50,318 nucleotides of DNA. It comes from an uncultured Actinomyces sp. (GTDB lineage Bacteria > Actinomycetota > Actinomycetes > Actinomycetales > Actinomycetaceae). Positions within the stretch are counted from its first letter, which is position 1, and every line of letters begins with the position of its first letter. This document shows positions 3,379 through 28,803 of the stretch, piece after piece. The notes under the pieces were generated by a model. The model was not told where the DNA came from and did not search any database. It saw only the letters and a program-made list of their open reading frames with translations. The DNA is taken from the NCBI GenBank assembly GCA_900556405.1, contig USPB01000001.1:1-50318 (forward strand), written 5' to 3'. The position numbers and the translations under genes were made by a program.

Positions 3379-3630
3379 CCAGCAGCAATGCGACCGCAGC
3401 CAGCAGCACCACCAGCGAGGCAGGCGCCAGCAGTAACGCCACCGCGGCCAGCAGCACCAACGAGGCCGAGACCAGCGGCCAAGCATCCAAGGACGGCAAC
3501 AACACAGGAACCAACAGCATGACCGGCGTCGGGAGCAGCAACGGCAACGAAGCTGGAACTAGGATCAAAGCAAACAAGAACGACAACAGCACCGGGACCA
3601 GCTTCCGCATGTTTCACGCATGTTTCACGC
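3379..3630. repeat. Degenerate CCAGCAGCA-rich tandem repeats and an 11-bp duplication
   Basis: Imperfect 48/45-bp duplication at 3379-3471; CGCATGTTTCA x2 at 3606-3627. Confidence 0.7.
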
Positions 3631-3739
3631 GCCGAACGTGTGCCCGCGACGGACACGCGCGACAGCCAACACCCACCACACCAGCGACGCGCGGCCGCAG
3701 CGTTCGCGGCACGCGCGCCCGCAGGGAAGAATGGAGGGT

Positions 3740-4417
3740 ATGGCAGATGAACGCGAGTCAAAGGAACTGCAGTCGGGAACGCTGGTCATCGGGCTGGGCC
3801 GTTTTGGCTCTGCGGTCGCGGTGACGCAAGACCAGTTGGGCTATGAGATCCTGGCGGTTGAAAAGAATCCCGCCCGTGTGCAGGCGTTCGCAGGGCGCTT
3901 CCCTCTTGTTGAGGCTGATGCAACCTCCAAGGACGCGCTTGAGCAGCTGGGCGCACGCGAGTTCCGCAGCGCAGTTGTCGGCGTGGGGTCGTCACTGGAG
4001 GCGGCGGTGTTGATCACGGCGAACCTGGTCGACATGGGTATTTCGTCAATCTGGGTGAAGGCGACGTCTTCGCAGCATGGCCGTATCCTGCGCCGCGTGG
4101 GAGCGCATCATGTTGTCTACCCGGATTTGGATGCTGGTAAGCGCACGGCGCACTTGGTGGGTGGCCGCATGGTTGACTACATCGAGATGGAGAAGGATGG
4201 CTTCTCGATCATGAAGTTACGCCCGCCGCAGGAGGTGCGCGGTTTCACGCTGGAGGAGCTGGATTTGCGCGGCCGTTATGGCGTGAATGTGCTGGCTATT
4301 CGTCGTCCGAAGCAGCGTTTTGAGTACGCGGATGCGTCCACGCGTATTAATGCCGACGACGAGATCATCGTCTCGGGCGATTCGCACCTGTTGGAGTATT
4401 TCGCGAATAGGCCGTAG
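3740..4417 (+). CDS. ktrA: TrkA/KtrA-family potassium uptake regulatory subunit (RCK_N + RCK_C)
   Basis: VIGLGRFGSAVA Rossmann motif, DAT...L..LG, GAHHVVYPD, LEELDLRGRYGVNVLAIRR. Start moved from 3620 to the in-frame ATG at 3740 (inference; ATG 3731 is an alternative). Confidence 0.92.
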   Translation: MADERESKELQSGTLVIGLGRFGSAVAVTQDQLGYEILAVEKNPARVQAFAGRFPLVEADATSKDALEQLGAREFRSAVVGVGSSLEAAVLITANLVDMGISSIWVKATSSQHGRILRRVGAHHVVYPDLDAGKRTAHLVGGRMVDYIEMEKDGFSIMKLRPPQEVRGFTLEELDLRGRYGVNVLAIRRPKQRFEYADASTRINADDEIIVSGDSHLLEYFANRP

Positions 4418-4427
4418 CGGCGAGAAT

Positions 4428-4469
4428 ACAGGAGGGCCCCGCACAGTGGTGTGTGCGGGGCCCTCCTGT
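4428..4469. terminator. Probable bidirectional intrinsic terminator between convergent genes
   Basis: Perfect 18-bp stem ACAGGAGGGCCCCGCACA / TGTGCGGGGCCCTCCTGT with a 6-nt loop, 10 bp after the ktrA stop. Confidence 0.85.
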
Positions 4470-4588
4470 TGTACTGGGACGAGGCCGGGGCCGCCCGCGC
4501 TCACGCCGCGAGGCAGAGCGCGGGGGTCCGTGCCGGTCGTCTGACGCGTGCAGTATGTCCGGGGCGACTGGGCGCCCCAGACGCACGG

Positions 4589-6046
4589 TCAGTGGCCATG
4601 GTGATGCGACCTATGCGGGGAGTGATGTCCGCCGCCGCTGTGGCTTCCACCCTTGTGGCTACCGCCGCTATGGCTGCCGCCGCTATGGCTGCCGCCCTTG
4701 TTGCCGCCACCATTGTGGCTACCGTTATGGCTCCCACCATTATGGTTGCCACCCTTGTGGTTACCACCGTTGTGGTTGCCACCCTTGTGGTCGCCATTGT
4801 TGTTGCCACTCTTGTGATCACCACCATTATGGTTGCCACCCTTGTGGTTACCACCGTTATGGTTGCCACCCTTGTGGTCGCCATTGTGGTTGCCACCCTT
4901 GTGATCACCGTTGTGGTTGCCACCCTTGTGATCACCGTTGTGGTTGCCCTTATGGTCGCCACCCTTGTGGTCACCACCCTTGTGGTCACCGCCACCATCA
5001 TGGCCGCCACCATCGTGGTCGGATTTACCGCCACCCCAGTCAATATGGGGCTCGATGCTGGGGTTAACCTCAATGTGGCGGTCTTCGCTATTGTCGACGT
5101 CACCGTTGTTGATGGTGCCATTGTTGTCACCGCCAACAACTGTGCCGCTGTTGTCTCCGCCAACCGAGGTGCCACCGGAGGTGCCACCGTTAGCCGTGCT
5201 ACCGCCACCGGCACTGCCGTCGCTACCGGCGGTGCCGCTCGTCGAGCCGCCTTCGCCGCAGCAACCGCCGCCGGGTGCCTGGCACTGCTCGCCGATGTGC
5301 TCGACGCCACGAGTCAGGTCATCACCAGCCGAGGTCATGACGGCGTAGATGGCCTCGATCGCCTGGAGGGCGTTCACAAGGACCTCGAGGATAGGCTCGA
5401 TGCGTCCGACCCACTTGGAAGTCTTACCAGCCACCTGGGCTGCCGCCACGGGCGTCGCGAGACCGAACGAGCAGATTTCTTCCGCGACGACCTCGAAACA
5501 CGTGACAACGATATCCGCGATAGCGCTCACGACGGCGTCGTGGATATTGTCAACAGAGTCCGCGACCTTGGACAGCGCTTCGCCGAAAGCACCCGACGCC
5601 TCGGACACGCCGTTGATCGCGCTGTAGACGACGGCTTGACGCTCCTGGTAGGCGCGTACGGCTTCACCGTGCATGTCGGCGAAGTCGCTCGCAGCTGCAT
5701 TTTCCAGCTCTTCAGCAATGGATGCGAGGGAGCTGGAGATGGAATCCCAGCTGGCGCTCATGCCGTACACCTGCCCGGAGTCGCCGGTCAGCTGGTTGAT
5801 CCAGGTTTTGAGCGGATCCACGTGCTGCATGATCCATTCGACGACAGAGCCTGCGATGCCACCGACAGGATCCAGCATCAGATTGCCGGCCTCCTCAACG
5901 AGTCCCCGCGCGGAATCAACGAGGTTGGTGACATCGCCCGAGCGCAGATCCTGGGCAGCATTGTAGAGAGTGTCAAAGACGGCCAGGCCCTCTGTCGGGG
6001 TGGTGTTGTCGATACTCCGAGTGTATTCGGGGGCTTCGGGACTCAC
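4589..6046 (-). CDS. Putative T7SS substrate: WXG100/EspA-like helical N-terminus + Gly/His/Asn/Asp/Lys low-complexity tail
   Basis: N-terminal DPVGGIAGSVVEWIMQHVDPLKTWINQLTGDSGQV...W...MHGEA resembles actinobacterial WXG100-like substrate domains. Tail of GGNHNGDHK-type repeats ending HHSPHRSHHHGH. GTG start overlaps the upstream stop (GTGA). Confidence 0.78.
   Translation of the reverse strand: MSPEAPEYTRSIDNTTPTEGLAVFDTLYNAAQDLRSGDVTNLVDSARGLVEEAGNLMLDPVGGIAGSVVEWIMQHVDPLKTWINQLTGDSGQVYGMSASWDSISSSLASIAEELENAAASDFADMHGEAVRAYQERQAVVYSAINGVSEASGAFGEALSKVADSVDNIHDAVVSAIADIVVTCFEVVAEEICSFGLATPVAAAQVAGKTSKWVGRIEPILEVLVNALQAIEAIYAVMTSAGDDLTRGVEHIGEQCQAPGGGCCGEGGSTSGTAGSDGSAGGGSTANGGTSGGTSVGGDNSGTVVGGDNNGTINNGDVDNSEDRHIEVNPSIEPHIDWGGGKSDHDGGGHDGGGDHKGGDHKGGDHKGNHNGDHKGGNHNGDHKGGNHNGDHKGGNHNGGNHKGGNHNGGDHKSGNNNGDHKGGNHNGGNHKGGNHNGGSHNGSHNGGGNKGGSHSGGSHSGGSHKGGSHSGGGHHSPHRSHHHGH
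4592..5035 (-). repeat. Coding minisatellite (12/15-bp units) encoding G(G)xHN/K repeats
   Basis: Repeated GCCACCCTTGTGG / CACCGTTGTGGTT units on the + strand. Confidence 0.9.
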
Positions 6047-7746
6047 TTCTTAACTCCTTCGAACAGGAAGCGACGCAGCGTCCGCTCCTCATCCTGACGC
6101 TGACGGTAGAGGAATGTTTCGATGTCCTTATCGCCGCGATCATCCTGTCGTTCGAACAGTGAACGCACGTCGTCCGTATTCGTATCGGGGTTGGCCTTGG
6201 AGAACTCCTCGATGCGGGCGGACTGGGCCTTCTCCTGCTGCTCAACGAAGCTGCGGTAGCTGGCCTGCTGGTCGTTGCGCTGCTGCGACATGAAGGTGTC
6301 AAAGTCCCTGGATGTCGCCTGCGGGTGATCCTGCACGTACTGGCGGATCTGCGTTTCCTCATCGGTACGTTGACGCGACAGGAAGTCCGTCATCGCGTCC
6401 TGCTGCTGTTGCTGGTTGGACTCGATAAGGGTCTTTATCTGGGAGATATCCGTACCCGGATGCGCCTCAGCGTAGCGTGCGAGAGCCTCGCTCTGGTCTT
6501 CCTTCTGGCGCTCGTAGAACTGCGACAGATCGGTGTTTTCGTCATCGCGCTGCTTCTCGAGGAACGCGCGAAGATCGTCCTCGTTCGAGGTGATCTTGTC
6601 GTGGCCGCCAAGGAGACTGTCGAAGTCATTACCGGGGGCACTGTGGTCCCCGTGCTTGCCATCGGAACCATCGTGGCCGTCGGAACCGTCCTTGCCGTCA
6701 TGACCGTCGTGACCGGAACCGTCCTTGCCGTCATGACCATCGTGACCGTTCGAACCATCGTGACCGTCGGAACCGTCCTTGCCGTCATGACCGTCGTGAC
6801 CGTCGGAACCGTCCTTGCCGTCATGACCATCGTGACCGTCGGAACCATCCTTGCCATCGTGGCCCGAACCGTCGTGACCGGAGCCATCGTGGCCCGAACC
6901 GTCGTGACCGGAACCGTCGTGGCCCGAACCATCGTGACCCGAACCATCGTGACCCGAACCATCGTGACCCGAACCATCGTGGCCTGAACCGTCAGAGCCG
7001 CCAGAACCATCAGAACTGCCGGAGCCGCCGGAGCTATGCGTGCCAGGGGTCGGAGGAATCGGGGTGGAAGGCTTATCGCCGCTGGAATCACCGCCGCCGG
7101 AGCCATCGTGGCCCGAACCGTCGTGACCCGAACCGTCAGAGCCGCCAGAACCGTCAGAGCCACCGGAGCCGCCGGAGCTATGCGTGCCAGGGGTCGGAGG
7201 AATCGGGGTAGAGGGCTTGTCGTCCCCGGAGCCATCGCCGCCGCCGCTGGAATCTCCACCACCACCGCTGCTGGAACCGCCACCGCCACTGCTGGAACCG
7301 CCGCCGCCGCTGCTGGAACCACCACCGCCGCCGCTGCTGGAACCGCCACCACCGCTGCTGGAACCACCGCCGCCGGGCGAGGGCGTCGGAGAAGGACCAG
7401 GCTGAGGCTGAGGCTGCGGATTGTCCTGCCCCTCATGAGCCTTCTTAATATCCTCCTTGATTTTCTGCTCAAGATCGTCCATCTCCTGAGCCCATTGAAG
7501 GAGGCAGTTAACGAGACGCTTCTCGGCACCGGCGCAGTCGGTGATCATCTTGGTCAGATTCTCGATCTGCGAATTGACGGGAGGAGCGAAGAAGGCACAC
7601 ATGAGGCCGAACGCATTGCCGCTGGCCTGACCATGCGTCGCGTTAGCGACACCCACATTCTTGTCGAGGGCCGATGCGTTGTCGCTGACCGTGGATGCGT
7701 GGCTACGGATTGTCGCCGTATTGACGCCGAGATCCACCCCGCTCAT
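6043..7746 (-). CDS. Putative T7SS substrate: EspC-like N-terminal domain, Gly/Ser linker, GSGHD and collagen-like GxD repeats, helical C-terminal repeats
   Basis: First ~100 aa (LGVNTATIRSHASTV...AFGLMCAFF...QWAQEMDDLE) resemble the 'type VII secretion target'/EspC family. ATGA overlap with the upstream gene and GTGA overlap with the downstream gene. Confidence 0.75.
   Translation of the reverse strand: MSGVDLGVNTATIRSHASTVSDNASALDKNVGVANATHGQASGNAFGLMCAFFAPPVNSQIENLTKMITDCAGAEKRLVNCLLQWAQEMDDLEQKIKEDIKKAHEGQDNPQPQPQPGPSPTPSPGGGGSSSGGGGSSSGGGGGSSSGGGGSSSGGGGSSSGGGGDSSGGGDGSGDDKPSTPIPPTPGTHSSGGSGGSDGSGGSDGSGHDGSGHDGSGGGDSSGDKPSTPIPPTPGTHSSGGSGSSDGSGGSDGSGHDGSGHDGSGHDGSGHDGSGHDGSGHDGSGHDGSGHDGSGHDGKDGSDGHDGHDGKDGSDGHDGHDGKDGSDGHDGSNGHDGHDGKDGSGHDGHDGKDGSDGHDGSDGKHGDHSAPGNDFDSLLGGHDKITSNEDDLRAFLEKQRDDENTDLSQFYERQKEDQSEALARYAEAHPGTDISQIKTLIESNQQQQQDAMTDFLSRQRTDEETQIRQYVQDHPQATSRDFDTFMSQQRNDQQASYRSFVEQQEKAQSARIEEFSKANPDTNTDDVRSLFERQDDRGDKDIETFLYRQRQDEERTLRRFLFEGVKK
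6640..7375 (-). repeat. Coding repeats: 9-bp GxD units, nine 15-bp GSGHD units, a 144-bp internal duplication and GGGSSS units
   Basis: GAGCTATGCGTGCCAGGGGTCGGAGGAATCGGGG occurs at ~7031 and ~7175; tandem ACC(A/G)TCGTG(A/G)CCCGA-like units at ~6855-6990. Confidence 0.9.
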
Positions 7747-8138
7747 CGCTGACCAGCACCCAACGACCCGAGGGTCGAATCGACGCTATTGAGGTACTCC
7801 TTGAGGGAACCGCCGTCCTCGCCGAAGCGCATGGTCGTCTGCGTACGCACGTAGTCACGCATGTTGCGCCCGGCGTCGGCGTACGCCTCCATGATCGCTT
7901 CTTCAACGTCGCGACCGGTGCCTTCGAGCGCGTCATCATCGATGGACAGTCGGACGAGCCGGCCGTTCGGATCGACCTCCACCTCGACCTCACGGCGGGA
8001 GTCGAAGCCGGTCGCCTTCGCGTTCTTGAGGAGTTCAACGAGGTCGCGAGCATCGGTAGCGCGCTTTTCGGCGGCAGCCATCTGAGCTCGGAGGGTCTGC
8101 TTTACTTCTTCGGGGGTACGCCCCATCACATCTACCAT
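7743..8138 (-). CDS. YbaB/EbfC-family (EspL-like) T7SS-associated protein
   Basis: ATGFDSRREVEVEVDPNGRLVRLSIDDDAL...VEEAIMEAYADA matches the YbaB/EbfC pattern; first gene of a translationally coupled trio. Confidence 0.8.
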   Translation of the reverse strand: MVDVMGRTPEEVKQTLRAQMAAAEKRATDARDLVELLKNAKATGFDSRREVEVEVDPNGRLVRLSIDDDALEGTGRDVEEAIMEAYADAGRNMRDYVRTQTTMRFGEDGGSLKEYLNSVDSTLGSLGAGQR

Positions 8139-8273: not shown

Positions 8274-9482
8274 CTAATCCGCGTGATAGCGCGGGCTCGT
8301 CCCCAGGTGAGCCGGGTAGCCATAGGCATCCGAGTTCACCACGCGTTCGTCGAAGCCCCGGTAGACGTACTCGTCGTCGTTGAAGATTGCACGCGGATCA
8401 ACAACCCCGGCTGCATAGTCCTCAAAGTTATCGAAGGTCACGACGAGATCACCGCCCTTGTCTTCGAAGGGATTCGCGTCCCGATACTGTGTGGGGTCAG
8501 AAGCGAGGAGAGCCACCGGATCAACCTCACCGTAACCGGTTCGTTCATTCCATTGTCCACCGGATCCGCTGGCCGTGGCGGCGAGCGCCTGCAGGATCTG
8601 GTCTGATGTTATGTCGCTGCCAAAACCTGCCCACGCCAGCGCGAGAACACCGGCGATCAGAGGCGCGGAAAACGACGTTCCCGCGACCGTGTAGATACTA
8701 TTCGTGCTGGCCCTCCGCGCGACTCCCTCGCCGACAGCGACGAGGGACACACCATCACCCCAGTTCGAGTAGTCCGCGTATCGCCCATCCGTCTCGAGAG
8801 CGCCGGCACCAATGACACCACCCCACGTGCCGAGAACGTCGTCCGGATTGCGTTGTCCTTCGTTGCCCATCGATACGACGACCGGTACGCCTCGTACAAC
8901 GGCGCGGGCCACCGCCCAGCGCAACGACTCTGCATCGCTGCGGGCAAAGGACGTGGAGATAGAGATAATGTTCGCGCCGTCATTCAGCGCCTGTTCGATG
9001 AGGCCCGCTTGATCCGCGAGAGCATGCGAATTACTTCCGAGGGAGCAATCCGACCCGGCGTCTCGCTTGAGACCTGCCTGCGCGTAGCTATAAATCGTCG
9101 CGCCGGGGGCGACACCGAAGTCGGGAGCAACCAGAAACTGAGCGATATACGTCGCGTGATCGTTGGTCTCCTGATCTGTTTGAACGGTGCACGGGGTCTT
9201 GTCTTGAATGTCAGCACCCGCCAGCTCAGGAATCGAGGTGTCGATATACCCATCGATAACGGCGATGATCACGCCCTCTCCCGTGTATCCCTGTGCGTGC
9301 AGAGAGGCCAGAGAATAGCGCGAGTAATAGGCCTCGTCGGCAGCTGTAATCTGATGGTCCACCGCATGGGCAGGAGCCACGGGGACGACGGGCGCCACCA
9401 CGATGCCTGCCGCCAGCGCGCACGCCGACGCCATCACGCCCAGGGTGCGCAGGCCTCGCGACCAACGGAAAGAAAGGCTCAT
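8274..9482 (-). CDS. Secreted S8 (subtilisin/mycosin-like) serine protease, paralog 1
   Basis: Signal peptide ending APAHA; catalytic motifs IAVIDG, DHAT, SMGN, GTSFSAP; C-terminus HLGTSPRYHAD; no TM anchor. Confidence 0.9.
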   Translation of the reverse strand: MSLSFRWSRGLRTLGVMASACALAAGIVVAPVVPVAPAHAVDHQITAADEAYYSRYSLASLHAQGYTGEGVIIAVIDGYIDTSIPELAGADIQDKTPCTVQTDQETNDHATYIAQFLVAPDFGVAPGATIYSYAQAGLKRDAGSDCSLGSNSHALADQAGLIEQALNDGANIISISTSFARSDAESLRWAVARAVVRGVPVVVSMGNEGQRNPDDVLGTWGGVIGAGALETDGRYADYSNWGDGVSLVAVGEGVARRASTNSIYTVAGTSFSAPLIAGVLALAWAGFGSDITSDQILQALAATASGSGGQWNERTGYGEVDPVALLASDPTQYRDANPFEDKGGDLVVTFDNFEDYAAGVVDPRAIFNDDEYVYRGFDERVVNSDAYGYPAHLGTSPRYHAD

Positions 9483-9529: not shown

Positions 9530-10732
9530 CTATTGCTGGGCGTGATAGCGCGGGCTCGTGCCCAGATGGGCTGGGAATCCGTAGGCGCCAGAATCCACTA
9601 CCCGTTCGTCGATTCCTCGATAGACGTACTCGTTATCGTTGTATATGTCTTCGGGATCCACGAGGCCATCAACATAATCGTCGATGTCGTCGGAAGTCAG
9701 CACGGGATCGTTACCCTTGTCTTCAAAGGGGTTCTCATCCGGGTACTGCGTCGGGTCAGAGGCAAGGAAGGCCACGGGGTCGATCTCCCCGAAACCGGTC
9801 CGATCGTTCCATTGACCGCCCGAGCCGCGAGCCGTGGCAGCCAGTGCCTGCAGAATCTGCCCCGACGGCACATCACCATCGAAGCCGTTCCATGCCAGGG
9901 CCAGGACGCCGGCAATCAGCGGCGTCGAAAACGAGGTCCCTTCGACCGTCTTCAGCTGATTGGTGCTGGCCTCACGCGCGTAGAACTGCCCGACGGCGGC
10001 GATGGAGACTCCGTCACCCCAGTTGGAGTAGTCCGCGTATTGTCCGTCGGTTGCGAGCGCAGCGGAGCCAATCACACCGGCGAAGGGTCCCATGGTATCG
10101 GACGCGTTGTACTCGCCGTCGTTACCCATTGATACAACAACGGGAACGCCTGCTGCTACCGCGCGGGAAACCGCCCACCGCAGCGATTCCTCGTCGGCCT
10201 CGTTGTAGGAGGATGTGATAACGATGATGTTCGCGCCGTCGTTGAGCGCCTGCTCGATGAGACTCGGCTTGCGCGCCAGAGCGGCCGAATTGGATCCGAG
10301 GGCACAGTCCGAATCCACGTCCCCCCAGTCGTCCGCGTACGCGTAGTTGTAGATCGTCGCGCCGGGAGCGACCCCGAAGTCGGGCGCAACCAGGATCTGG
10401 GCGACTTCGGTCGCGTGATCGTCAGACTCCGCGTCATTGGTGACCTCACAGGGGGTCTTGTCCTGGATGTCTGCACCCTGAAGTTCGGGGATTGAGGCGT
10501 CGATATGACTGTCGATAACAGCAACGATGACGCCGTCGCCGCGATACCCGCGTGCGTGCAGGTCAGCCAGTGAATAGCGGGAATAGTAGGCCTCGTCGGA
10601 TGCCTGTACCTTGTGAGAATCCGCGTGCGCGGCCGGTGAAGGAGCCACCAGCGTGCCCACCGCGAGAAGGCAGGCCGACACCGTCACGCACAGGGCGCGC
10701 AGGCGTTGGAAACGATTAACCAATGGCGTCAT
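9530..10732 (-). CDS. Secreted S8 serine protease, paralog 2
   Basis: Signal peptide ending AAHA; VAVIDS, DHAT, SMGN, GTSFSTP; C-terminus HLGTSPRYHAQQ; clear tandem paralog of 8274-9482. Confidence 0.9.
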   Translation of the reverse strand: MTPLVNRFQRLRALCVTVSACLLAVGTLVAPSPAAHADSHKVQASDEAYYSRYSLADLHARGYRGDGVIVAVIDSHIDASIPELQGADIQDKTPCEVTNDAESDDHATEVAQILVAPDFGVAPGATIYNYAYADDWGDVDSDCALGSNSAALARKPSLIEQALNDGANIIVITSSYNEADEESLRWAVSRAVAAGVPVVVSMGNDGEYNASDTMGPFAGVIGSAALATDGQYADYSNWGDGVSIAAVGQFYAREASTNQLKTVEGTSFSTPLIAGVLALAWNGFDGDVPSGQILQALAATARGSGGQWNDRTGFGEIDPVAFLASDPTQYPDENPFEDKGNDPVLTSDDIDDYVDGLVDPEDIYNDNEYVYRGIDERVVDSGAYGFPAHLGTSPRYHAQQ

Positions 10733-10862: not shown

Positions 10863-12287
10863 TCACGACAGGTCTTCGTCTGGCTCTTCGACGACCGCGG
10901 GCCTGCCGCGCAGGTGCGACAGGATCACGAGGCCGGCGATCATGGCGACACCGAGCACGGCGATCGCGGAGACGATGTAGGCGCGGACCGTCAGGTTGTT
11001 ATCCCGTTGCGTCAGGTTCGGCGAGGCGACAGCGGGGCGGGCGGGGGCGGGATGCTCAGCCGCGTTGGGGTGCGCTGGCCCGTATCTCGTGCCGATGTCG
11101 GTGAAGGTCAGCGCGTCAAAGGGGGCGACGATCCCCCACCCGAGCCCATCGGTGCGTTGGTCGGCGGTGCCGCGTACGGCTGTCACCTCCAGGCGGTACT
11201 TCCACATCTCGGGTCCCTCGTCCGGGTACGCCGACGCGATGAGCGCCGCGAAACCTGCGGCGTAGGCGGTCGCATAGGAGGAGGAGGGCATCGGCTGGTC
11301 GCCCTGGTATCCGCCGACGAGGCAGTCGGCCTGGTTGAACCATGTCGTGAGGATGACGCCGGCTGGAACAGCGATCCCGACGTGCGAACCGTGCACCTGC
11401 TGGTCGGAGGCTGACCCGTCAGCGTTCGAGGCCGTCACGCCGAGGACGCTCTCGTAGGCGGCCGGATACACGACCTTGTTTTGCTCCTGCCCCTGGTACA
11501 CGTTGCCGGTCGAGGCCACGACGAGGGCACGGCCGCGCACGGATCGGATTGCCGCTTCGAGGTTCGCGTCGCCCTCGGCCGCCGACTGGGCGACGACGAT
11601 GATTTGCGCGCCATGGTCGGCAGCCCACTGGATGCCTCTGCCGACCTTGGACATGAAGGTCTCTTCGCCTTCCTTCGTCGAAGTATCCTGCTCGAGGCCA
11701 GTGTCCACGCGGACGGGAAGAATCGTCGCCTCGGGGGCGACGCCGATGAGGCCAGAGTTCTTTGACTCGGGCAGTTCGCGGGCAGCAATCGCGCCGGCGA
11801 TCGCGGTCCCATGCTCGCCGACGTCGACGCGCCCGTCGGTGTTTTCGCCACTCAGATCCACGCCGGGGAGCACCACGGGGCCGTCGGAGGACTGAAAGTG
11901 TTCATTGCCTGCGGCCACACCCGAGTCGACGATGGCGACAGTCACGCCCTTGCCGCGGGAAATCTCCCACGCGCGCCGCACGCCCACGGCATCGAAGATC
12001 TCGGGCTGGTTCTTAATGTACGACGGCGAGTTCTCGGAGCATTTCCCGTCCCCTGAGTCGGCCGGGGTGGTCGGCGTCGGGGAGGGAGATGCAGTCGGGG
12101 TGGGACGCACACTCGGCGTCGGCACCGGGTCGGCGTGCGCGGGGGCCGGGCCAAACGCGCCCCCAGCCCCGGCCTCGTCCGAGGGGGTGAGGGGGGCGAC
12201 CAGGGCGGCGAGCGTCAGGCCGGCGATCAGGGATGCCCCGACGAGGCCTCGGCCCAGCGCCCAGGATCTGGCACGTATGCGGATCAC
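10863..12287 (-). CDS. mycP: Mycosin (T7SS membrane-anchored S8 protease)
   Basis: VAIVDSGV, EHGTAIAG, GLIGVAPEATILPVRV, STGN, SSSYAT; C-terminal TM helix (YIVSAIAVLGVAMIAGLVIL). Start set at GTG 12287, which overlaps the eccB stop (GTGA). Confidence 0.85.
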   Translation of the reverse strand: MIRIRARSWALGRGLVGASLIAGLTLAALVAPLTPSDEAGAGGAFGPAPAHADPVPTPSVRPTPTASPSPTPTTPADSGDGKCSENSPSYIKNQPEIFDAVGVRRAWEISRGKGVTVAIVDSGVAAGNEHFQSSDGPVVLPGVDLSGENTDGRVDVGEHGTAIAGAIAARELPESKNSGLIGVAPEATILPVRVDTGLEQDTSTKEGEETFMSKVGRGIQWAADHGAQIIVVAQSAAEGDANLEAAIRSVRGRALVVASTGNVYQGQEQNKVVYPAAYESVLGVTASNADGSASDQQVHGSHVGIAVPAGVILTTWFNQADCLVGGYQGDQPMPSSSYATAYAAGFAALIASAYPDEGPEMWKYRLEVTAVRGTADQRTDGLGWGIVAPFDALTFTDIGTRYGPAHPNAAEHPAPARPAVASPNLTQRDNNLTVRAYIVSAIAVLGVAMIAGLVILSHLRGRPAVVEEPDEDLS

Positions 12288-13735
12288 GACAGCCCCGCTG
12301 AGGTAGCAGCCGCCTGAGGCGTCAACTCCGATCCGGGGGGAATGATATTGCCCCACGCCTGCGGGATCATCGCAACGTCATCCGATGTCCACCCGAGGGC
12401 CTTGAGCGAGACGGCGGGAGCATCGCCAAGCGAATGTCGGTACCCCATATCCGAAATGAAAACGTAGGCACCGGCATCGCCACCGCCCGCCGTCAGGGAC
12501 GCGACGACCCCGGAACCGCCGGCCACGGTGACCGTGCGCGACGTCGTCGGACCACCCGTCGCAGAGACCGATTCAGGGTCGTAGGAGGCCTGGATGGCGC
12601 GCTGCTCCTTCATGGTGTACAGGCCAAATTGCGGAACAGCCTTGTCCTTCGTGTCCATCTTGGTGCACAGGACGGTGCGGCTGGCCGCGTCAAGCTTGTC
12701 GTCCTTCCACTCCGGGTTCGCGAAGTCATCGACGGCGGGCCAGTCCTCGCCGATGAAGTCGGCCTGCACGGGCGCGACGTCCTTGAACATTTCCGTCGGA
12801 TACTGCTCAACCTTCGGTGCGTCCTGGTAGAGCTTGGCCGCAGTTGAATTGAAGACGGCCAAATCGGAGTCGTTGATGACCAGATAGGAGTTGAGGACCT
12901 CGCCATTGGAATTGATCTGTTCGACGACCGTGCCGATCGTCAGGTTCTCATTCTTGAGTGGGCCCGGCAGATTCCTCGCGGGCTCGCCCGCGTTGGGGAT
13001 GTCGCTGTAGCTCCACGGCTTCAAACGCGTGCCGGAGGGGAAGAGGTCGAGCCACTCGGGTTCGACGATGATCGGGTACGCCGTCCTGTTCTGGAAGGAC
13101 AGGACCCAGTCGCCCAGGCGGCTCACGGAGGCGTCAATAAGGTACTTCTTGTGGGTCTTCGCGTCGATGAAGTACTTGTCCTCGCTGCCCACCGCCTGCA
13201 CGAGGGCCGCGGTGGCGGGCTGAAGCGGGAAGTTATCCGTCGGCAGGTCCTGGGCGATCCACGTGTGGTAACTGGTCGGCAGGTCGCAGGAGAGCCACGT
13301 CGAGGCAAGGTCTGCGGATGCAGGCACGTCGTCTGGGACGCCGGGCAGGCCGATCTGGGCACCGCGCGGGGTGTCCTTGAGGGACGAGGCACTGGCACTG
13401 ACGATCGTCAGGCCGGAGTCTCCCGCGAGAAGCTTCGCGGTCGTCACGTTGCTGATCGGGTGTAGCACGCCGTTCACTGACAGGTAGCGCGCGCCCGTGT
13501 CCTTGACGTCGACCAGCTTGTAGTTAGCGTCCGTCAGGTCTGGTTTAGCTGCGAAGCTCCGCAGGGCGATGCCGATGACGCACACAATGATGGCGACGAC
13601 GGCGCCGAAGATGAGAGGCCGCACCGGGGAGGGAGTGTCGACCTCGCGGCCGCCAGGGGTACCCGACGTAAAGGCCGTGATCAGACGGTTTCGGTTGAAG
13701 CGTTGGGCTTCGAGGATATCTTTACTGGTCGGCAT
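12284..13735 (-). CDS. eccB: Type VII secretion protein EccB
   Basis: MPTSKDILEAQRFNRNRLITAF N-terminus, single TM, LHPISNVTTAKLL and PRGAQIGLPGVPD motifs. Confidence 0.92.
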   Translation of the reverse strand: MPTSKDILEAQRFNRNRLITAFTSGTPGGREVDTPSPVRPLIFGAVVAIIVCVIGIALRSFAAKPDLTDANYKLVDVKDTGARYLSVNGVLHPISNVTTAKLLAGDSGLTIVSASASSLKDTPRGAQIGLPGVPDDVPASADLASTWLSCDLPTSYHTWIAQDLPTDNFPLQPATAALVQAVGSEDKYFIDAKTHKKYLIDASVSRLGDWVLSFQNRTAYPIIVEPEWLDLFPSGTRLKPWSYSDIPNAGEPARNLPGPLKNENLTIGTVVEQINSNGEVLNSYLVINDSDLAVFNSTAAKLYQDAPKVEQYPTEMFKDVAPVQADFIGEDWPAVDDFANPEWKDDKLDAASRTVLCTKMDTKDKAVPQFGLYTMKEQRAIQASYDPESVSATGGPTTSRTVTVAGGSGVVASLTAGGGDAGAYVFISDMGYRHSLGDAPAVSLKALGWTSDDVAMIPQAWGNIIPPGSELTPQAAATSAGLS

Positions 13736-13738
13736 AGC

Positions 13739-15100
13739 TCAGCCCCACATGTAGACGGCCAAGGGAATCAGGGCAAAAAGCGACAGCACCGAGATAGTGT
13801 CGGCGAGTCGCGTCAGGTGCGGACGCGCACGAGGCCCGACGACGTTCGTGATGACGAGCACGAGGGCAGCCGCAATTGCTGCGAGGGCCACCCACGCCAG
13901 CATCGTTGGTTCCGCGCGGGTGGCGAGGCTCGCGGTGATCAGGATCGTCACCAGACCCGTGAGAACACCGAGGAGGACCTCCACGCGCGCGCGAATCGAG
14001 CGGGTTTGGAGGATCAGGGAGATCGATCCGAGGAAGACGAGGATCATCGGGAGGAGCACTGAACGGGTGCCGGGCGCACTCATCAACGAGACCGCGAGGA
14101 AAATCGCTGCCAGCGCCCCGCCCGCGCGCAAGGCGACGACGAAGACGAAGGAAGTGCCGACCTGGTCGGTGATCGTTTGGGCGGGAATCTGCTCGGTCGT
14201 GTTCGCGTCGAGGATACGCACGGGAATGTGTGCCAGGGCAATCCACGGCGCCATCTGGAGGAGGACGACCACGAAAGCGAAGAGGGCAGCGGAGACGCCG
14301 ACCTGTGAGAGGGAACCGAGAGAGACCAGGAGACCCGTCGTCGCTATCACCGTACCGAGGACGAGGGGTGCCACGATCGAGATGCGGTAACGCTTGGGCA
14401 GTGTGAGGATCGCGAGCGAGCCGACAAGGAGGCCGACACCGATCCAGATCCACCCGGCGGTGTCCCACTGGCTCTGCGTGAGACGAAGCGCGGACGCGCA
14501 GGTCAGAAGGGGCACTGTGTGCGCCAGCGCGATGCCGCTGGGCCGGGGGCTCTGGCGCGTGACGACAGCCGACGTGCCGGTGACGAGGAGGGCAGCGATG
14601 ATGCCGATGACGCCGTAGACGCGGTTGAGCAGCGTGATGCGCTGGGGGTCCAAGGATGCGAGGGCATCCGGGGGCGTGGTCGCCAGGAGGAGGGCGGCAA
14701 CGAAAATGAGGGCAGCGGCAGACAGCGCAGCAAGAATGCGAGCATCATCACGCGTCCAAGGGGTGGACACTCGTTCGACGACTTGACCGACCGCTTCAGT
14801 GAGGTCGTCGTAGACCATGTCGGCAGCGCCTTCACCAAGAGGCTCGAGCGTGAGGGCGGCTCCCGCACGCACACCCTGGGCAGACAGCGACTTCGACTGG
14901 TCCAGCAGACGACCTGACGCGGTCCTCACCGAGAAGCCATCATTTGTCGGCTGATCAGTGAAAGCACCAACGGTTTCAACCATTCCAGGCAACAGCTCCA
15001 CGAGAGGGATCGACTGCGGAATCGTCACGTCACTACGATCAACGCCATAGGTAATCGTGAGCGGAATCAGCGCCACTCCTCGAGATGTTTTCGTTGCCAT
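13739..15100 (-). CDS. eccD: Type VII secretion integral membrane protein EccD (copy 1)
   Basis: Ubiquitin-like N-terminus (DVTIPQSIPLVELLP...LLDQSKSLSAQGVRAGAALTL), YDDLTEAV linker, ~11 TM helices, ends LIPLAVYMWG. Confidence 0.9.
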   Translation of the reverse strand: MATKTSRGVALIPLTITYGVDRSDVTIPQSIPLVELLPGMVETVGAFTDQPTNDGFSVRTASGRLLDQSKSLSAQGVRAGAALTLEPLGEGAADMVYDDLTEAVGQVVERVSTPWTRDDARILAALSAAALIFVAALLLATTPPDALASLDPQRITLLNRVYGVIGIIAALLVTGTSAVVTRQSPRPSGIALAHTVPLLTCASALRLTQSQWDTAGWIWIGVGLLVGSLAILTLPKRYRISIVAPLVLGTVIATTGLLVSLGSLSQVGVSAALFAFVVVLLQMAPWIALAHIPVRILDANTTEQIPAQTITDQVGTSFVFVVALRAGGALAAIFLAVSLMSAPGTRSVLLPMILVFLGSISLILQTRSIRARVEVLLGVLTGLVTILITASLATRAEPTMLAWVALAAIAAALVLVITNVVGPRARPHLTRLADTISVLSLFALIPLAVYMWG

Positions 15101-15295: not shown

Positions 15296-15601
15296 ATGGC
15301 AGACCAGAGGGCCGCAGACGGCGCCCTGAAGCAGGGTTACACAGCGGTTGAGTCCACCAAGACCGAAATCGACGGCCACCTCAGCCGTCTTGAGGGCGAC
15401 CTGTCGACCATCGGCAGCTCCTGGCAGGGCGCTGCGGCGACGCAGTTCCAGACGCTGATGAATCAGTGGCATGAGAACGCTGCCAAGGTTAACCGGGCTC
15501 TTCAGGATCTCGCTGATAACCTGCACGCCACCGATTCGTCGATGTCACACAACGAGGCCGAGACCGAAAACTCGTTCTCCAGCCTGGCCGGCGGACTGTG
15601 A
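15296..15601 (+). CDS. WXG100-family secretion target (EsxB-like)
   Basis: 101 aa with central SSWQGAAA; RBS GGAGG before ATG 15296; first of a tandem pair. Confidence 0.93.
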   Translation: MADQRAADGALKQGYTAVESTKTEIDGHLSRLEGDLSTIGSSWQGAAATQFQTLMNQWHENAAKVNRALQDLADNLHATDSSMSHNEAETENSFSSLAGGL

Positions 15602-15627: not shown

Positions 15628-15909
15628 ATGGATTTCCAGGTAAACTACACCGCGCTTGACAGCGCCGCCGCTGACATCAAAACCGGTGCCAATAACCTGC
15701 AGAACTGCCTCGACGACCTCGAGCAGACGCTGAACCAGCTGCGCTCGAATTGGGAAGGCAAGACACAGGAAGCCTACGACGAGGCTCAGCGTCGTTGGAA
15801 CCAGGGCCTCACGGGCCTGAAGGACGTGCTGAACCGTACCTCCAGCGCTGTCGACGCCGCTCGCTCCAACTACCAGACGACGGACCAGTCCAACGCTGCC
15901 CGCTTCTGA
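15628..15909 (+). CDS. WXG100-family secretion target (EsxA-like)
   Basis: 93 aa with NWEG motif and a C-terminal YxxxD secretion motif (YQTTD); RBS AGGAG. Confidence 0.93.
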   Translation: MDFQVNYTALDSAAADIKTGANNLQNCLDDLEQTLNQLRSNWEGKTQEAYDEAQRRWNQGLTGLKDVLNRTSSAVDAARSNYQTTDQSNAARF

Positions 15910-16356: not shown

Positions 16357-17754
16357 TCAGCGCGCAGAATCCGCGTCAGCGTGGACGATCGTGGCGCGAC
16401 GTTCACCCATGAGGATCTCGGTGCCCGCAGGGACCTCAACGGCCTGACCGCCGGTCAACGCGGTGATACGCCCGTCGGGGGTGCGGATCTGCGTGCCGTT
16501 CGCGGAGAACGAGTCCTCAATCCACGCCCCACTTGCTGTGGGACCCACGCGCATGTGCGTGCGCGACAGGGACACCGTCGTATCGGGCACGACGACAGCG
16601 CGCGACCCTTCGACGGCTGCAGGTGCCCGCCCCAGGGTGAGCGGCATGTCGATGAGCTCACGCTGGCCCGAGTCGAAAATGAGCCACAGGAGCTGCGCGC
16701 GCGGCGGCGTCGCGGGCGCGCCCCACTGGGACTGGCCGGCGCCTCCCCACTGCCCCTGGGGGCCGGCGGCGCGCTGGGCAGCCTGCACGTCGCGACGACT
16801 CGGTGGCGGTCCAGGCACGCCCGAGGCCGGGGCCTGGTACTGCACCGGAGCAGAGTACGGGGGCTGAGCGGGTTCCTGGCGCGCGGGCCCACCCCAGCCG
16901 TCCTGGGGCGCGGGCGACGCGGAGGGCGCGGGCGACGCGGAGGGCGCAGGCACCGCCGGGGGCTGCTGGGCTGGTACCTGTGCGGGCGTGGGCCGCTGGG
17001 GTGCCGGACGATGAGTCTCGGGCGCGCCCTGAGGTGGTGCGAGGAGTGCATCGAACTGCGTGGGCTCGTGAGCGGCGGGCGCGGACGGGAGCGGCGCCGC
17101 CGGAACCTGCGCGGCAGCGGGCGCAGCCGGAACCAAGGGAACACTCGGCGCCACTGGCGCACTGTAGGGATCGTTCGCTCGCTGACCGGGAGCCGAGTAG
17201 TCGGGCATGGACGAAGGAACGGGAGTCAGCGGGGCATTCGGCGCATCCCACTGACCCGCACCTGCCTGCACGCCCTCGAAGCCGCTGGGCGCCTGGCCGG
17301 GGCGGGGATCATCCACCGCCTGTCCGGGACCCGCAGCGAGGGCCGCGTGTGTGCGCAGGTCGACGAAACGCGTATGCGTGGGCCCATTGAGCCACGTGCG
17401 CCCATCATGGACCATCGCGTACGAGGCCAGCAGACCCACAACCGTCAGCTGAAGCAGCGCACTCAAGGCCGTGTAGCCCATGGCCGCTCCCAGCGAAGGA
17501 GTCTGGGCGTCATCCTCGTCTCGAATGAGGCACACGCGCATGAGGGCCATACCCGGGGTCCGCCCCGACACCCCCAGCATGACGCCGGAGGCAACCACGG
17601 CCTCGGCGATGATCAGACCGACCGTCACCGGCGTGAAATAGACGAACCACGTCACCCCCACCAGCGCCCCGAGGACCAGCAGGTCGATGACGTACGCGCC
17701 GACGAGCCGCGAGGCGGTCGCGCAGGCGAAAGGAGTCTTCGTGGTGTCACCCAT
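16357..17754 (-). CDS. RDD-domain membrane protein with Pro-rich linker and C-terminal FHA domain
   Basis: RLVGAYVID...GRTPGMALMRV (RDD); LTLGRAP...SLSRTHMRV...IEDSFSANGTQI (FHA GR, SxxH and NGT motifs). ATG 17754 overlaps the upstream stop (TAATG) and has a GGAGG RBS. Confidence 0.87.
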   Translation of the reverse strand: MGDTTKTPFACATASRLVGAYVIDLLVLGALVGVTWFVYFTPVTVGLIIAEAVVASGVMLGVSGRTPGMALMRVCLIRDEDDAQTPSLGAAMGYTALSALLQLTVVGLLASYAMVHDGRTWLNGPTHTRFVDLRTHAALAAGPGQAVDDPRPGQAPSGFEGVQAGAGQWDAPNAPLTPVPSSMPDYSAPGQRANDPYSAPVAPSVPLVPAAPAAAQVPAAPLPSAPAAHEPTQFDALLAPPQGAPETHRPAPQRPTPAQVPAQQPPAVPAPSASPAPSASPAPQDGWGGPARQEPAQPPYSAPVQYQAPASGVPGPPPSRRDVQAAQRAAGPQGQWGGAGQSQWGAPATPPRAQLLWLIFDSGQRELIDMPLTLGRAPAAVEGSRAVVVPDTTVSLSRTHMRVGPTASGAWIEDSFSANGTQIRTPDGRITALTGGQAVEVPAGTEILMGERRATIVHADADSAR

Positions 17755-19175: not shown

Positions 19176-19205
19176 GAAACCTCCGATCTCAGGGAAACAA
19201 CAGTG

Positions 19206-19269
19206 CCCAGTGTAATGCACTGAGGCTAACCGCCGGTTAAAACTTGGAAGAGCACTCAGCTACACTGGG
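19206..19269. promoter_or_regulatory. Symmetric back-to-back promoters for eccD2 and eccC
   Basis: TACACTGGG on the + strand (19261-19269) and on the - strand (19214-19206); TACACT fits the actinobacterial TAnnnT -10 consensus. Confidence 0.55.
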
Positions 19270-23422: not shown

Positions 23423-23962
23423 ATGTCCTCTCTCGTGTCCCGTCGTGCTCGCGCAGCCACCGCTTCCCTGCTGCTCGCTTCCGTCGCCCTGTCCGGTTGC
23501 AGCATCTTGGGTGGTGCGCGAAATTCCACCGATATTTCGAAGTTGCCCAACATTCCCGAGGGGCAAAAGCAGCAGCTGGTCAGCCAGATGCAGTCTGCTT
23601 CTGGCTCGGAGAAGAAGGAGATCGCCGCGAAGGCGACGGCCCTGAGCAAGATGGTGGGGACGGAGCTGGTTGTGGTGGAGCCCCCGTCGATCATCGACCA
23701 GACCTTCAAGTTGGATCCCAAGGGTAAGACCGTGGTGAACAAGGACGACGATATCTACCAGATGATGTCGGCCACCGATTACTGGCGCCTGGGCCAGGAC
23801 ACCTACGACCTGTGCGTGGAGCAGGACTGCGAGTACTACTCGTCGTGGACGGTAGACGTGGAGGGCTCGGGCGCCGACCTGACGTACGTGTGGACCCTGA
23901 AGGTCGACGGTGACGATCAGCCTAAGGAGCCGGTGGTCCGGCGCTTCAAGGTCGGTAAGTAA
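23423..23962 (+). CDS. Putative lipoprotein
   Basis: Basic n-region, hydrophobic h-region and lipobox LSGC; RBS AGGAG. Confidence 0.8.
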   Translation: MSSLVSRRARAATASLLLASVALSGCSILGGARNSTDISKLPNIPEGQKQQLVSQMQSASGSEKKEIAAKATALSKMVGTELVVVEPPSIIDQTFKLDPKGKTVVNKDDDIYQMMSATDYWRLGQDTYDLCVEQDCEYYSSWTVDVEGSGADLTYVWTLKVDGDDQPKEPVVRRFKVGK

Positions 23963-24020
23963 GCGGCCCTGCGCATCGACACACTCTCTTCTTTTCTCAT
24001 CAACCATTTAGGAGTCAACA

Positions 24021-24539: not shown

Positions 24540-24571
24540 GCTGCATAGCTACACATAAGGAGTTTGTCACA

Positions 24572-28704: not shown

Positions 28705-28803
28705 CACTATTCCTTTCGCCACGCACCCCGGCGGCGCGCAACACGTCAGTCTACCATCCGGTCATGTGCGCGAGCGTGACGGCTCAATCGCCATCACCGC
28801 GCC

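Follow-up and report, generated by a model that had tools for sequence, protein, structure and literature searches.

Gene A and its layout

The subject of this analysis is a single gene, referred to as gene A, in a 50,318-nucleotide stretch of DNA from an uncultured Actinomyces sp. (contig USPB01000001.1 of the assembly GCA_900556405.1); the whole of this stretch is called the window. Gene A (4589..6046, minus strand, an open reading frame (ORF) of 485 aa) closes a complete locus of an ESX-type (T7SSa) type VII secretion system (T7SS) and is the positional ortholog of OBNOAD_00338 of Schaalia odontolytica F0309 (see below). Its product begins with a helical domain (residues 1-254; 5285..6046, minus strand) which, on the evidence of the AlphaFold2 (AF2) model, phmmer and a subthreshold Pfam match, is a T7SS substrate or polymorphic-toxin trafficking domain. 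The junction between this domain and the tail is occupied by a Cys motif, CQAPGGGCCG (residues 255-264; 5255..5284, minus strand), recognized in the alignment and in a scan of homologs; with the two preceding residues it forms the cluster EQCQAPGGGCCG (residues 253-264). Then follow a proximal tail (residues 265-335; 5042..5254, minus strand), which is acidic, rich in Gly, Ser, Thr and Asn and contains a conserved V.GDN.G...N.(I/V)E segment, and a His/Gly repeat polymer (residues 336-485; 4592..5041, minus strand), delimited by composition and tandem repeats and ending in the His cluster HHSPHRSHHHGH.

The gene starts with GTG, has AAGGAG 7 nt 5' of the start and overlaps by 4 nt the stop of the upstream ORF (6043..7746, minus strand), which encodes a 567-residue protein, the ortholog of OBNOAD_00337, and is referred to as gene B. 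The next gene downstream is a convergent trkA (3620-4417, plus strand). Between the two lies an 18-bp perfect hairpin (4428..4469), probably a bidirectional terminator, which a simple terminator scan missed because no T-run follows it. The predicted fold of the minus strand at 4415-4590 has -116.8 kcal/mol (z = -9.56 versus shuffles); the same 176-nt space holds two more GC-rich hairpins beside the terminator-like one. Neither the ORF list nor the Pfam scan contains an immunity-like ORF 3' of gene A, where the hairpin and the convergent trkA stand instead. The same arrangement is found in F0309, where Table S1 of the preprint described below places no immunity gene directly downstream of OBNOAD_00338 (PMC13622651). 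No paralog of gene A was detected at E ≤ 0.01 in the window's own genome, which is 80% complete.

The N-terminal domain is related to toxin carriers

A phmmer search with residues 1-265 against 1.84 billion representative sequences returned 974 matches at E ≤ 1e-3, with 513 of them at E ≤ 1e-10. The Pfam scan covered 111 of the best 150 relatives, and a recognized C-terminal toxin domain was present in 31 of these 111: TNT (7), ART (5), GH-E (4), Gln-amidase (4), CDI EC869-like (2), CdiA-CT (2) and, with one case each, YwqJ deaminase, Endonuclease_NS_2, PT-HINT+Ntox33, Ntox15, SsdA_C, RHS+AHH and Ntox50. Proteins ending in TNT, ART, GH-E, Gln-amidase, CdiA-CT, deaminase or RHS-AHH domains match gene A at E = 1e-19 to 1e-27. 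Relatives at 25-30% identity clear the threshold of the Pfam family WXG100_2 (PF25547), for example P0150 with 43.1 bits and P0198 with 44.5 bits, so that the homology of gene A to this family holds through intermediates. As judged by sequence comparison, the homology of the N-terminal domain to the trafficking domain of actinobacterial T7SS polymorphic toxins is solid.

The AF2 model, built with 150 sequences, is a long helical bundle (helices 23-36, 39-58, 60-75, 79-87, 90-121, 128-193 and 198-255) with block-mean pLDDT values of 82-95 over residues 81-250, and a helix-turn-helix hairpin is present within this elongated bundle. In VIA-align, residues 88-177 superimpose on EsxA (3zbh_A) with an rmsd of 1.7 Å over 90 of 90 residues (Z 10.6), and PPE15 (5xfs_B) is matched over 159 residues with Z 9.6, the values for PPE15, PPE4 and PPE41 together being Z 9.1-9.6 over 149-160 residues. 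Foldseek found no match to the model in the PDB at E ≤ 1e-3, its top rows being BAR/eisosome bundles. The tripeptide W212-V213-G214 was considered as a WXG motif and rejected, G214 not being conserved.

A disordered His/Gly polymer in the place of the toxin

Beyond residue 206 of gene A, Pfam and NCBIfam gave no family match, and no C-terminal toxin domain was found. The protein contains 38 His in total, with 4 in the 254 residues of the N-terminal domain and 33 in the last 156 residues, which are 21% His and 35% Gly. The polymer proper (residues 336-485) is composed of G55, H32, N22, K13, S13, D12, W1, P1 and R1; a single residue of the 150 is order-promoting, the other 149 being G, H, S, R, Q, P, K, E, N or D. 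The repeat units change along the tail from GGDHK through GGNHN/GDHK to GGSHS, and the very end is a cluster with 8 His in 12 residues. Successive His stand five positions apart 17 times and four positions apart 5 times. At the DNA level, Tandem Repeats Finder reports periods of 15 nt (24.4 copies), 27 nt (9.1 copies) and 87 nt (3.0 copies) over 4639-4990. In the AF2 model the pLDDT stays below 50 from residue 277 onward.

The calculated charge of the polymer is +4.9 at pH 7.5, +18.0 at pH 6.5 and +31.4 at pH 5.5; since it is carried by about 32 His, the polymer would have little net charge at pH 7.5 and become a strong polycation at pH 5.5. The proximal tail has a calculated charge of -8.8 at pH 7.5. 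By composition and calculated charge, nearly all residues of the tail are disorder-promoting and the tail is cationic at acid pH, the two features that characterize the cationic intrinsically disordered antimicrobial peptides (CIDAMPs) discussed below. Used as a query, the tail retrieved its own family (12 members) and, beyond it, a single protein from a tick, P0256 of Rhipicephalus appendiculatus (474 aa), whose long GGEHK/GGDHK pentapeptide run is near-identical to the first tail repeats (58% identity over 85% of the query region). This likeness presumably reflects convergence and not homology.

An earlier note on this DNA, made from the letters alone, had described a WXG100-like helical domain of the sort that often carries polymorphic toxins, a Cys cluster, and a His/Gly polymer of about 150 residues with some 30 His in graded repeats filling the toxin position, followed by a terminator and no immunity-like gene. 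The analysis bears this description out: 32 His lie in residues 336-485, the grading and the ending HHSPHRSHHHGH are as given, the Cys cluster is EQCQAPGGGCCG, the low-complexity tail stands where relatives have toxins, the hairpin is probably the terminator, and the relationship to WXG100 proteins is solid by way of the relatives, although the match of gene A itself to WXG100_2 is below threshold (see below).

What the family conserves

A word-indexed search with residues 1-255 yielded 107 homologous proteins (one of them named 'Schaalia sp.'), each with a tail of at least 100 residues; the tail statistics given here refer to these 107. A scan of 185,579 species genomes found 13 loci, 11 of which are labelled Schaalia, Pauljensenia, Actinomyces, Actinomycetaceae or 'uncultured Actinomycetes', the other two being short contigs labelled Xylanimonas. 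Of 201 sampled genomes of the family, 20 gave some match at E ≤ 1e-5, and full-length orthologs were confined to the window's own genus (7 of 12 genomes, that of the window included).

All of the 19 members that were aligned, the most distant having about 35% identity overall and about 42% within the N-terminal domain, share the 254-residue N-terminal domain, the motif C-x-x-P-x-G-G-C-C-G and the short V.GDN.G...N.(I/V)E segment, after which the tails diverge. C255, P258, G260, G261, C262, C263 and G264 are invariant in these 19, as are V304, G306, D307, N308, G310 and N328, and the CxxPxGGCC motif was found in 106 of the 107 homologs. At least four types of tail stand behind this one junction motif, so that the family presents variable C-termini on a conserved N-terminal domain. 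Even strains whose N-terminal domains are identical to that of the window at 252-254 of 254 positions have tails that differ by in-frame indels of 5, 9, 13 and 14 residues. In P0018 and P0019, compared with P0021 and L003, an N-terminal domain and a tail from different lineages are joined at the CQAPGGGCCGEG junction: the N-terminal domain of P0018 is identical to that of P0021 (254/254) and its tail nearly so to that of L003 (145/149), the own N-terminal domain of L003 being identical at only 178 of 254 positions. Either cassettes have been exchanged naturally at the Cys motif, or the metagenome assembly is chimeric here (the contigs are below 2 kb).

Across the 107 proteins the frame of the tail and its basic C-terminal end are kept, with lengths of 110-230 residues and with differing repeat units. 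His-rich tails make up 89 of the 107 (11-36 His, mean 20.4), and His is retained through at least four unrelated repeat types and also in the barely repetitive tail of the S. odontolytica type; the S. meyeri ortholog (L008) has 38 His in its tail. On the other hand, 18 of the 107 have only 1-6 His and consist mostly of Lys/Pro/Thr repeats, as in the loci L011-L013 of sister species, where such a tail occupies the same syntenic position as the His/Gly tail; the syntenic ortholog L009 of a sister species is likewise His-poor. The two classes differ in fixed charge, with a mean K+R-D-E of -5.9 for the His-rich versus +12.7 for the low-His tails. When His is counted as positive (K+R-D-E+H), the means become +14.5 and +15.2, respectively, and individual complete syntenic orthologs have +27, +17, +14, +41, +18, +20 and +19. 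The last 20 residues have a mean net charge, His left aside, of +4.2 in the His-rich and +7.1 in the low-His tails. With a potential charge of about +15 and a basic end in both classes, the conserved property is that of a disordered, repeat-variable polycation, which in gene A is acid-gated by calculation. Judged by this comparison, the constant of the family is a disordered block of positive or acid-inducible positive charge with a basic end, and not histidine as such.

The earlier note had proposed comparing the C-termini of N-terminal domain homologs, and had made its metal-binding interpretation depend on the conservation of the His content. The comparison gives toxins in 31 of the 111 scanned relatives, and the His content holds for the 89 His-rich tails and fails for the other 18, those of the syntenic sister-species orthologs among them.

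Gene B and its predicted pairing with gene A

The order of S8 genes, YbaB-like gene, gene B, 4-nt overlap and gene A was the same in all of the nine loci with enough flanking sequence, and throughout the genus the A-B pair keeps its place at the end of the ESX locus. The product of gene B comprises three parts: a conserved helical hairpin (residues 1-105) of EspC/Tap-like type, for which the Pfam EspC match (E = 0.006) is below threshold, a variable low-complexity region and a conserved helical C-terminal domain (residues 372-567).

Co-folding of gene A residues 1-256 with gene B residues 1-106 was carried out in three runs along with 3 controls. The median ipSAE was 0.76 (0.78, 0.76, 0.76), whereas the best control reached 0.00. 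Contacts agreed between the runs to 84% or more, and the partner pLDDT was not lower than 80. The predicted interface brings residues 84-168 and 230-255 of gene A together with residues 7-85 of gene B. In the calibration of ipSAE, 116 of 157 solved complexes but just 2 of 215 mismatched pairs attained this mark, counts that hold only roughly because our own alignments were used; part of the pass may be due to likeness to solved PE/PPE and EsxAB complexes. The modelling thus supports, without demonstrating it, a predicted heterodimer in which the N-terminal domain of gene A and the hairpin of gene B, the gene to which A is translationally coupled, form a four-helix bundle.

The middle of gene B is a variable region of Gly, Ser, Asp, His, Lys and Pro with proline-free G-X-Y triplet runs and 26 His, and gene B is also His-rich in the closest relatives of the window. 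About residues 295-345 there are 17 uninterrupted charged G-X-Y triplets (GHD/GKD/GSD), and the orthologs in L009, L012 and L011 have runs of 47, 38 and 24 triplets (GEK/GKD). These runs look collagen-like, which would be unusual for a T7SS-linked protein; the Pfam collagen family gave no match in gene B at E ≤ 0.01. The possibility that the acidic region of gene B generally neutralizes the basic tail of gene A was rejected because the net charge of the low-complexity region, which over 10 loci is -35, -34, -26, -5, -2, -2, -28, -26, -27 and -17, is near zero in three species. The C-terminal domain (6046-6633, minus strand) is highly conserved and helical, with internal repeats of the type FL.(K/R)QR.(D/E)E, and its model has a pLDDT of 86.3 and a pTM of 0.80. 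Foldseek gave no informative structure match for this domain (best E = 0.69), and only 22 close homologs were found (69-74% identity). A match of gene B to the NCBIfam model 'MTB_hemophore' (E = 5.4e-4, 20.8 bits versus a cut-off of 32, over 33 residues) was treated as due to chance.

The ESX locus

EccC, EccB, EccD, a mycosin and a WXG100 pair lie within the same 25 kb as gene A, and the T7SS setting proposed in the earlier note is thereby confirmed. Upstream of gene B stand a YbaB-like gene (7743-8138), three S8/mycosin-like genes (8274-9482, 9530-10732 and 10863-12356, minus strand), EccB (12284-13735), EccD (13739-15100, minus strand), the WXG100 pair (about 15296-15601 and 15628-15909), an RDD/Pro-rich/FHA-domain protein (16357-17772, minus strand), a second EccD-like gene (17754-19220, minus strand), EccC (19314-23357; TIGR03924, 814 bits) and three small or unknown genes (23423-26173). 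The locus continues with two more S8 genes (26152-27387, plus strand; 27475-28722, minus strand) and a Ser/Thr kinase (28804-30480, minus strand). A single ESX locus thus contains five S8 subtilase genes. The mycosin model scores best for 10863-12356 (217.8 bits, cut-off 278.75), the other S8 genes having 126-131 bits or being recognized in the Pfam S8 scan only; processing of low-complexity substrates is a possible role for these proteases. On the other side gene A is flanked by trkA, a DUF559 gene and ktrB. Among the neighbours of gene A in the window, and among those in F0309 according to Table S1, there is no metal transporter, no Zur/Fur-type regulator and no metallochaperone.

The orthologous locus of S. 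odontolytica F0309

The function of an ESX locus of this kind was addressed in a recent preprint (Wang et al. 2026, PMC13622651). Its Table S1 lists the F0309 genes OBNOAD_00320-00341 in the order kinase, S8, S8, 'PPE family domain' protein, hypothetical, Tat-signal protein, EccC, EccD, FHA, two ESAT-6-like, EccD, EccB, three S8, YbaB, hypothetical 00337, hypothetical 00338, trkA, DUF559 and ktrB (PMC13622651). The gene order of the window is exactly the same, reversed, which makes gene A the positional ortholog of 00338 and gene B that of 00337. The FHA protein at 16357-17772 is probably the one that the preprint calls EsrG2, the names used in the table being eccD, FHA domain-containing protein and kinase (PMC13622651).

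According to the preprint, the Esx system restrains the Saccharibacteria epibiont TM7-008, and AesA and AesB are co-secreted as an Esx-dependent heterodimer; the Gly-rich intrinsically disordered region (IDR) of AesB is needed to restrain the epibiont, and a GYVNP/GYNVP motif (both spellings occur) matters too (PMC13622651). The orthologs of this pair in the window are 24021-24539 and 24572-26173 (both plus strand), the latter encoding a 533-residue product with a Gly-rich middle and GYVNP near its C-terminus. The preprint text assigns 00323 to aesA and 00324 to aesB, the IDR-bearing one (PMC13622651); labels or order may be swapped there. That gene A and gene B are themselves AesA and AesB was considered and rejected on the gene order of Table S1. 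The GYVNP motif is absent from gene A, which has no sequence similarity to the AesB-like protein of the window (BLASTP E = 2.1).

As for the orthologs of gene A and gene B, the methods of the preprint name 00337 and 00338 only as candidate Esx substrates, found with AlphaFold3 and Foldseek (PMC13622651). On infection with TM7-008 their RNA rises with a log2FC of 1.28 for 00337 and 1.46 for 00338 (adjusted p 1.9e-5), and their protein in whole cells goes up about 2-3-fold, an increase that is lost in delta-esrA1 and kept in delta-esrA2 (PMC13622651). Both orthologs are made as protein and are induced about 2.5-3-fold by the epibiont; for 00338 this goes through Esr1, alongside the core genes of the Esx cluster. 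In the delta-eccC secretome, which was obtained from a monoculture in TSB without the epibiont, only EsxA, EsxB, AesA and AesB fell, and the secretion of EsxA and EsxB depends on neither AesA nor AesB (PMC13622651). The word 'histidine' has 0 occurrences in the main text of the preprint, and our literature searches for histidine-rich type VII proteins of Schaalia or Actinomyces found nothing describing gene A among the papers listed.

Interpretation

The reading that we favour, at somewhat short of an even chance, is that A and B are an Esx substrate pair in which the disordered tail serves as an acid-on polycation payload that attaches to anionic polymers of cell envelopes, whether those of epibionts and neighbours or those in the wall of the producer. 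Gene A would be a substrate of the adjacent ESX-type (T7SSa) system and would be exported together with gene B as a pair. The toxin module would have been replaced by a disordered, fast-evolving repeat tail acting by bulk physical properties and not by a fold. Once exported, the tail would bind anionic polymers such as teichoic and lipoteichoic acids, wall polysaccharide, membranes or extracellular DNA, be it on attached epibionts, on neighbours or on the producer's own wall, and this binding would be switched on by acid, for example in dental plaque or on the tongue coat. The five S8 proteases of the locus may first release the tail as peptides. There is a precedent among peptides: a 22-mer consisting solely of Gly and His is a potent bactericide at pH 5.5 and kills P. 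aeruginosa, and His-rich disordered cationic peptides work at acid pH only, their activity being lost at neutral pH (PMC6399351). The Gly-rich IDR of AesB, from this very locus and needed against the epibiont, is another (PMC13622651). Binding of Zn, Ni or Cu would be an expected chemical side property, which might modulate the action of the tail without being its conserved function. In this oral, Schaalia-type bacterium the tail looks more like an acid-switched sticky polycation than like a dedicated metal scavenger.

A number of observations weigh against this reading. The N-terminal domain has a calculated charge of about -27 at pH 7.5, the whole gene A protein is acidic, and even at pH 5.5 the three segments add up to only about +3; a strong polycation exists only locally or after cleavage. 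The persistence of His across unrelated repeat types would also fit selection for metal binding, and a distant relative, P0109, has an acidic tail. With respect to export, 00338 was not reported among the EccC-dependent secretome proteins, though it is detectable in whole cells (PMC13622651). The match of gene A itself to WXG100_2 (20.6 bits, E = 4.8e-4, residues 88-206) lies below the 27-bit gathering threshold. The structural matches sit among generic BAR-like bundles at Z 10-12 and do not discriminate; with EsxA and PPE values not above those of unrelated BAR domains, the fold evidence is only compatible with a T7SS substrate. There is no canonical WXG in gene A, the hairpin turn (residues 125-127) being the variant MHG; across the alignment of 150 relatives, 78 have M and 8 have W at the first position of the turn, and 138 retain G127. 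Residues 1-256 contain no YxxxD/E, nor could the partner supply it through residues 1-105, which are devoid of Tyr. AesA and AesB likewise have variant export signals (PMC13622651). Finally, the polycation mechanism is purely what we infer, and so is every functional step past 'expressed, induced, predicted to pair'.

Three other accounts seem to us unlikely, each of them clearly less probable than the favoured one. According to the first, the A-B pair is a structural or accessory secretion component or a wall tether rather than an effector, comparable to EspA/EspC, EspB or PE/PPE proteins, which helps other substrates across the wall or decorates the surface, with tails that are wall-spanning spacers or anchors whose composition matters little. 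The constancy of the pair in the core ESX locus, in the nine loci with enough flank as well as in F0309, which is not that of a variable toxin-immunity cassette, and the single copy of gene A in the window's genome would suit such a role, as would the subthreshold EspC match and collagen-like G-X-Y runs of gene B. The Lys/Pro/Thr repeats found in the sister clade look like the segments with which surface proteins of Gram-positive bacteria span the wall, and mycosin-type proteases are adjacent; in mycobacteria, MycP1 processes the tail of EspB. The abundance of the F0309 protein in whole cells, with no report of it in the supernatant in the preprint, points in the same direction, and yet the secretion of EsxA and EsxB proceeds in F0309 without AesA and AesB (PMC13622651). 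The potential charge of about +15 and the basic end persist in tails of differing chemistry, which argues that the composition of the tail is not arbitrary, and the relatives of the N-terminal domain are carriers of effectors.

The second account, to which we give the same low weight, takes the protein as a secreted metal binder whose tail captures Zn, Ni or Cu for metallophore-like uptake, for withholding metal from neighbours or for a metal-bridged matrix. His-rich tracts generally bind Zn, Ni and Cu, and metal binding of the tail in vitro is expected from its chemistry. The density and regular spacing of His in the last 156 residues, the terminal cluster, the prevalence of His-rich tails in the family (89 of 107, across unrelated repeats), the 38 His of the S. 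meyeri tail, the His-rich region of gene B in the closest relatives and the invariant triple-Cys motif that adjoins the tail all fit this account. Against it speak the syntenic orthologs of the sister species, with 1-6 His and Lys/Pro/Thr repeats instead; the neighbourhood, in which gene A stands between ESX genes and the group of trkA, DUF559 and ktrB, with no metal genes adjoining it in either the window or F0309; and the lack of an evident receptor or uptake partner. The F0309 ortholog, moreover, responds to the epibiont via Esr1 along with the Esx core genes (PMC13622651). For these reasons the metal-scavenging or metal-cross-linked function proposed in the earlier note did not find support; metal scavenging by the gene A tail is neither supported nor excluded.

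The third account is a bolder form of the favoured one and, in our judgement, equally improbable as the two preceding. Gene A would encode an acid-gated polycationic T7SS effector, a bacterial counterpart of the His-rich disordered antimicrobial peptides of the host, in which a repeat 'polyprotein' on a toxin-type carrier is exported with gene B, perhaps cut by the subtilases into Gly/His peptides, and coats or permeabilizes Saccharibacteria epibionts or oral competitors at low pH only, the sister species having an always-on Lys/Pro/Thr version.

That the tail has no function, having arisen by slippage of repeats once a toxin domain had been lost, and is kept only because the N-terminal domain pair is needed, would account for the in-frame indels among near-identical strains, for the missing fold (pLDDT < 50) and for tail matches limited to the own family and a convergent tick protein, and is very improbable indeed, given that the frame, the basic end and the V.GDN.G segment are kept in all 19 aligned members down to about 35% identity, that 107 tails stay within 110-230 residues, that His content or positive charge persists through different repeat units and that the F0309 ortholog is expressed and induced (PMC13622651).

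Proteins of this kind, T7SS substrates with a helical carrier and a low-complexity C-terminus, are already known, and the ortholog of gene A has been flagged as a candidate substrate. Three features did not turn up in the literature searched: the replacement of the toxin by a His/Gly polymer on a carrier of the polymorphic-toxin type, the invariant junction with its three Cys, and the charge-equivalent Lys/Pro/Thr tails of sister species. The Esx systems of Actinomycetaceae have only recently been assigned a function, namely defence against epibiotic Saccharibacteria, and AesB, which works through a disordered region, is the sole effector shown so far (PMC13622651). Gene A would provide a second, unrelated IDR-bearing candidate substrate in the locus of AesB, and a case of a polymorphic-toxin carrier domain reused for a non-enzyme payload. 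Its positional orthologs constitute a natural experiment: their tails are made of either His/Gly or Lys/Pro/Thr repeats, the potential charge is about equal in the two, and strains vary in repeat number. This variation makes a polycation hypothesis for disordered Esx effectors directly testable and separable from metal binding.

Comparison with known systems

The closest comparison for the carrier is with the actinobacterial T7SS polymorphic toxins, which combine a helical bundle, one or more upstream Tap-like genes, a payload that varies and an immunity gene downstream, the Eat loci being an example (Benedict et al. 2026, PMC13444075). Gene A shares with them a homologous N-terminal domain; like the Tap/Lap-like hairpin genes upstream of those toxins (PMC13444075), gene B supplies a small helical hairpin predicted to bind gene A, and the C-terminus is polymorphic, perhaps through exchange at a conserved junction. 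In contrast to the toxins, gene A has neither a toxin domain nor an immunity gene, its partner is a 567-residue protein with its own low-complexity region and a conserved C-terminal domain, the pair is fixed and single-copy in the core ESX locus, and an invariant CxxPxGGCC stands at the junction.

The mycobacterial substrates EspB, EspA/EspC and the PE/PPE proteins, PE_PGRS and PPE-MPTR included, resemble gene A in having a helical secretion domain followed by a Gly-rich, repetitive and disordered C-terminus, in being secreted as a pair (as we suppose for A and B) and in having mycosin genes adjacent. PPE15, PPE4 and PPE41 align with gene A at the Z values given above, which do not exceed those of unrelated BAR domains, and gene B has its subthreshold Pfam match to EspC. 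Unlike the PE/PPE proteins, gene A has no PE or PPE signature, no YxxxD/E and an MxG in place of WxG, and its repeats are His pentapeptides and nonapeptides rather than PGRS or MPTR units.

Among host peptides, the CIDAMPs derived from hornerin consist, like the tail, of nearly all disorder-promoting residues with many His and are charged at acid pH only; they are made as long repeat precursors that are cut into peptides, to which the repeat tail of gene A may be likened (PMC6399351). CIDAMPs differ in being eukaryotic epithelial products and not bacterial T7SS cargo, and the tail of gene A is attached to an acidic helical domain. Histatins are another group of His-rich, acid-activated host-defence peptides. 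Hpn of H. pylori, histidine-rich glycoprotein and HRP2 are similar to the tail in the density of His and in their short His-containing repeats. Unlike these metal-binding proteins, gene A has no link to metal genes or metal regulation, and its positional orthologs have His replaced by Lys, Pro and Thr; moreover, Hpn is a cytosolic storage protein, whereas gene A is probably extracellular.

With the AesA-AesB pair, gene A shares neither sequence similarity nor the GYVNP motif, its tail being His-rich, and its F0309 ortholog, unlike the pair, was not among the EccC-dependent secretome proteins reported (PMC13622651). On the other hand, both pairs belong to the same ESX locus and are co-induced by the epibiont, both involve a heterodimer of helical N-terminal domains (predicted only, in the case of A and B), and like AesB, gene A places a Gly-rich variable IDR behind a helical N-terminal domain, in the position of the effector, in a protein whose ortholog is co-regulated with Esx (PMC13622651).

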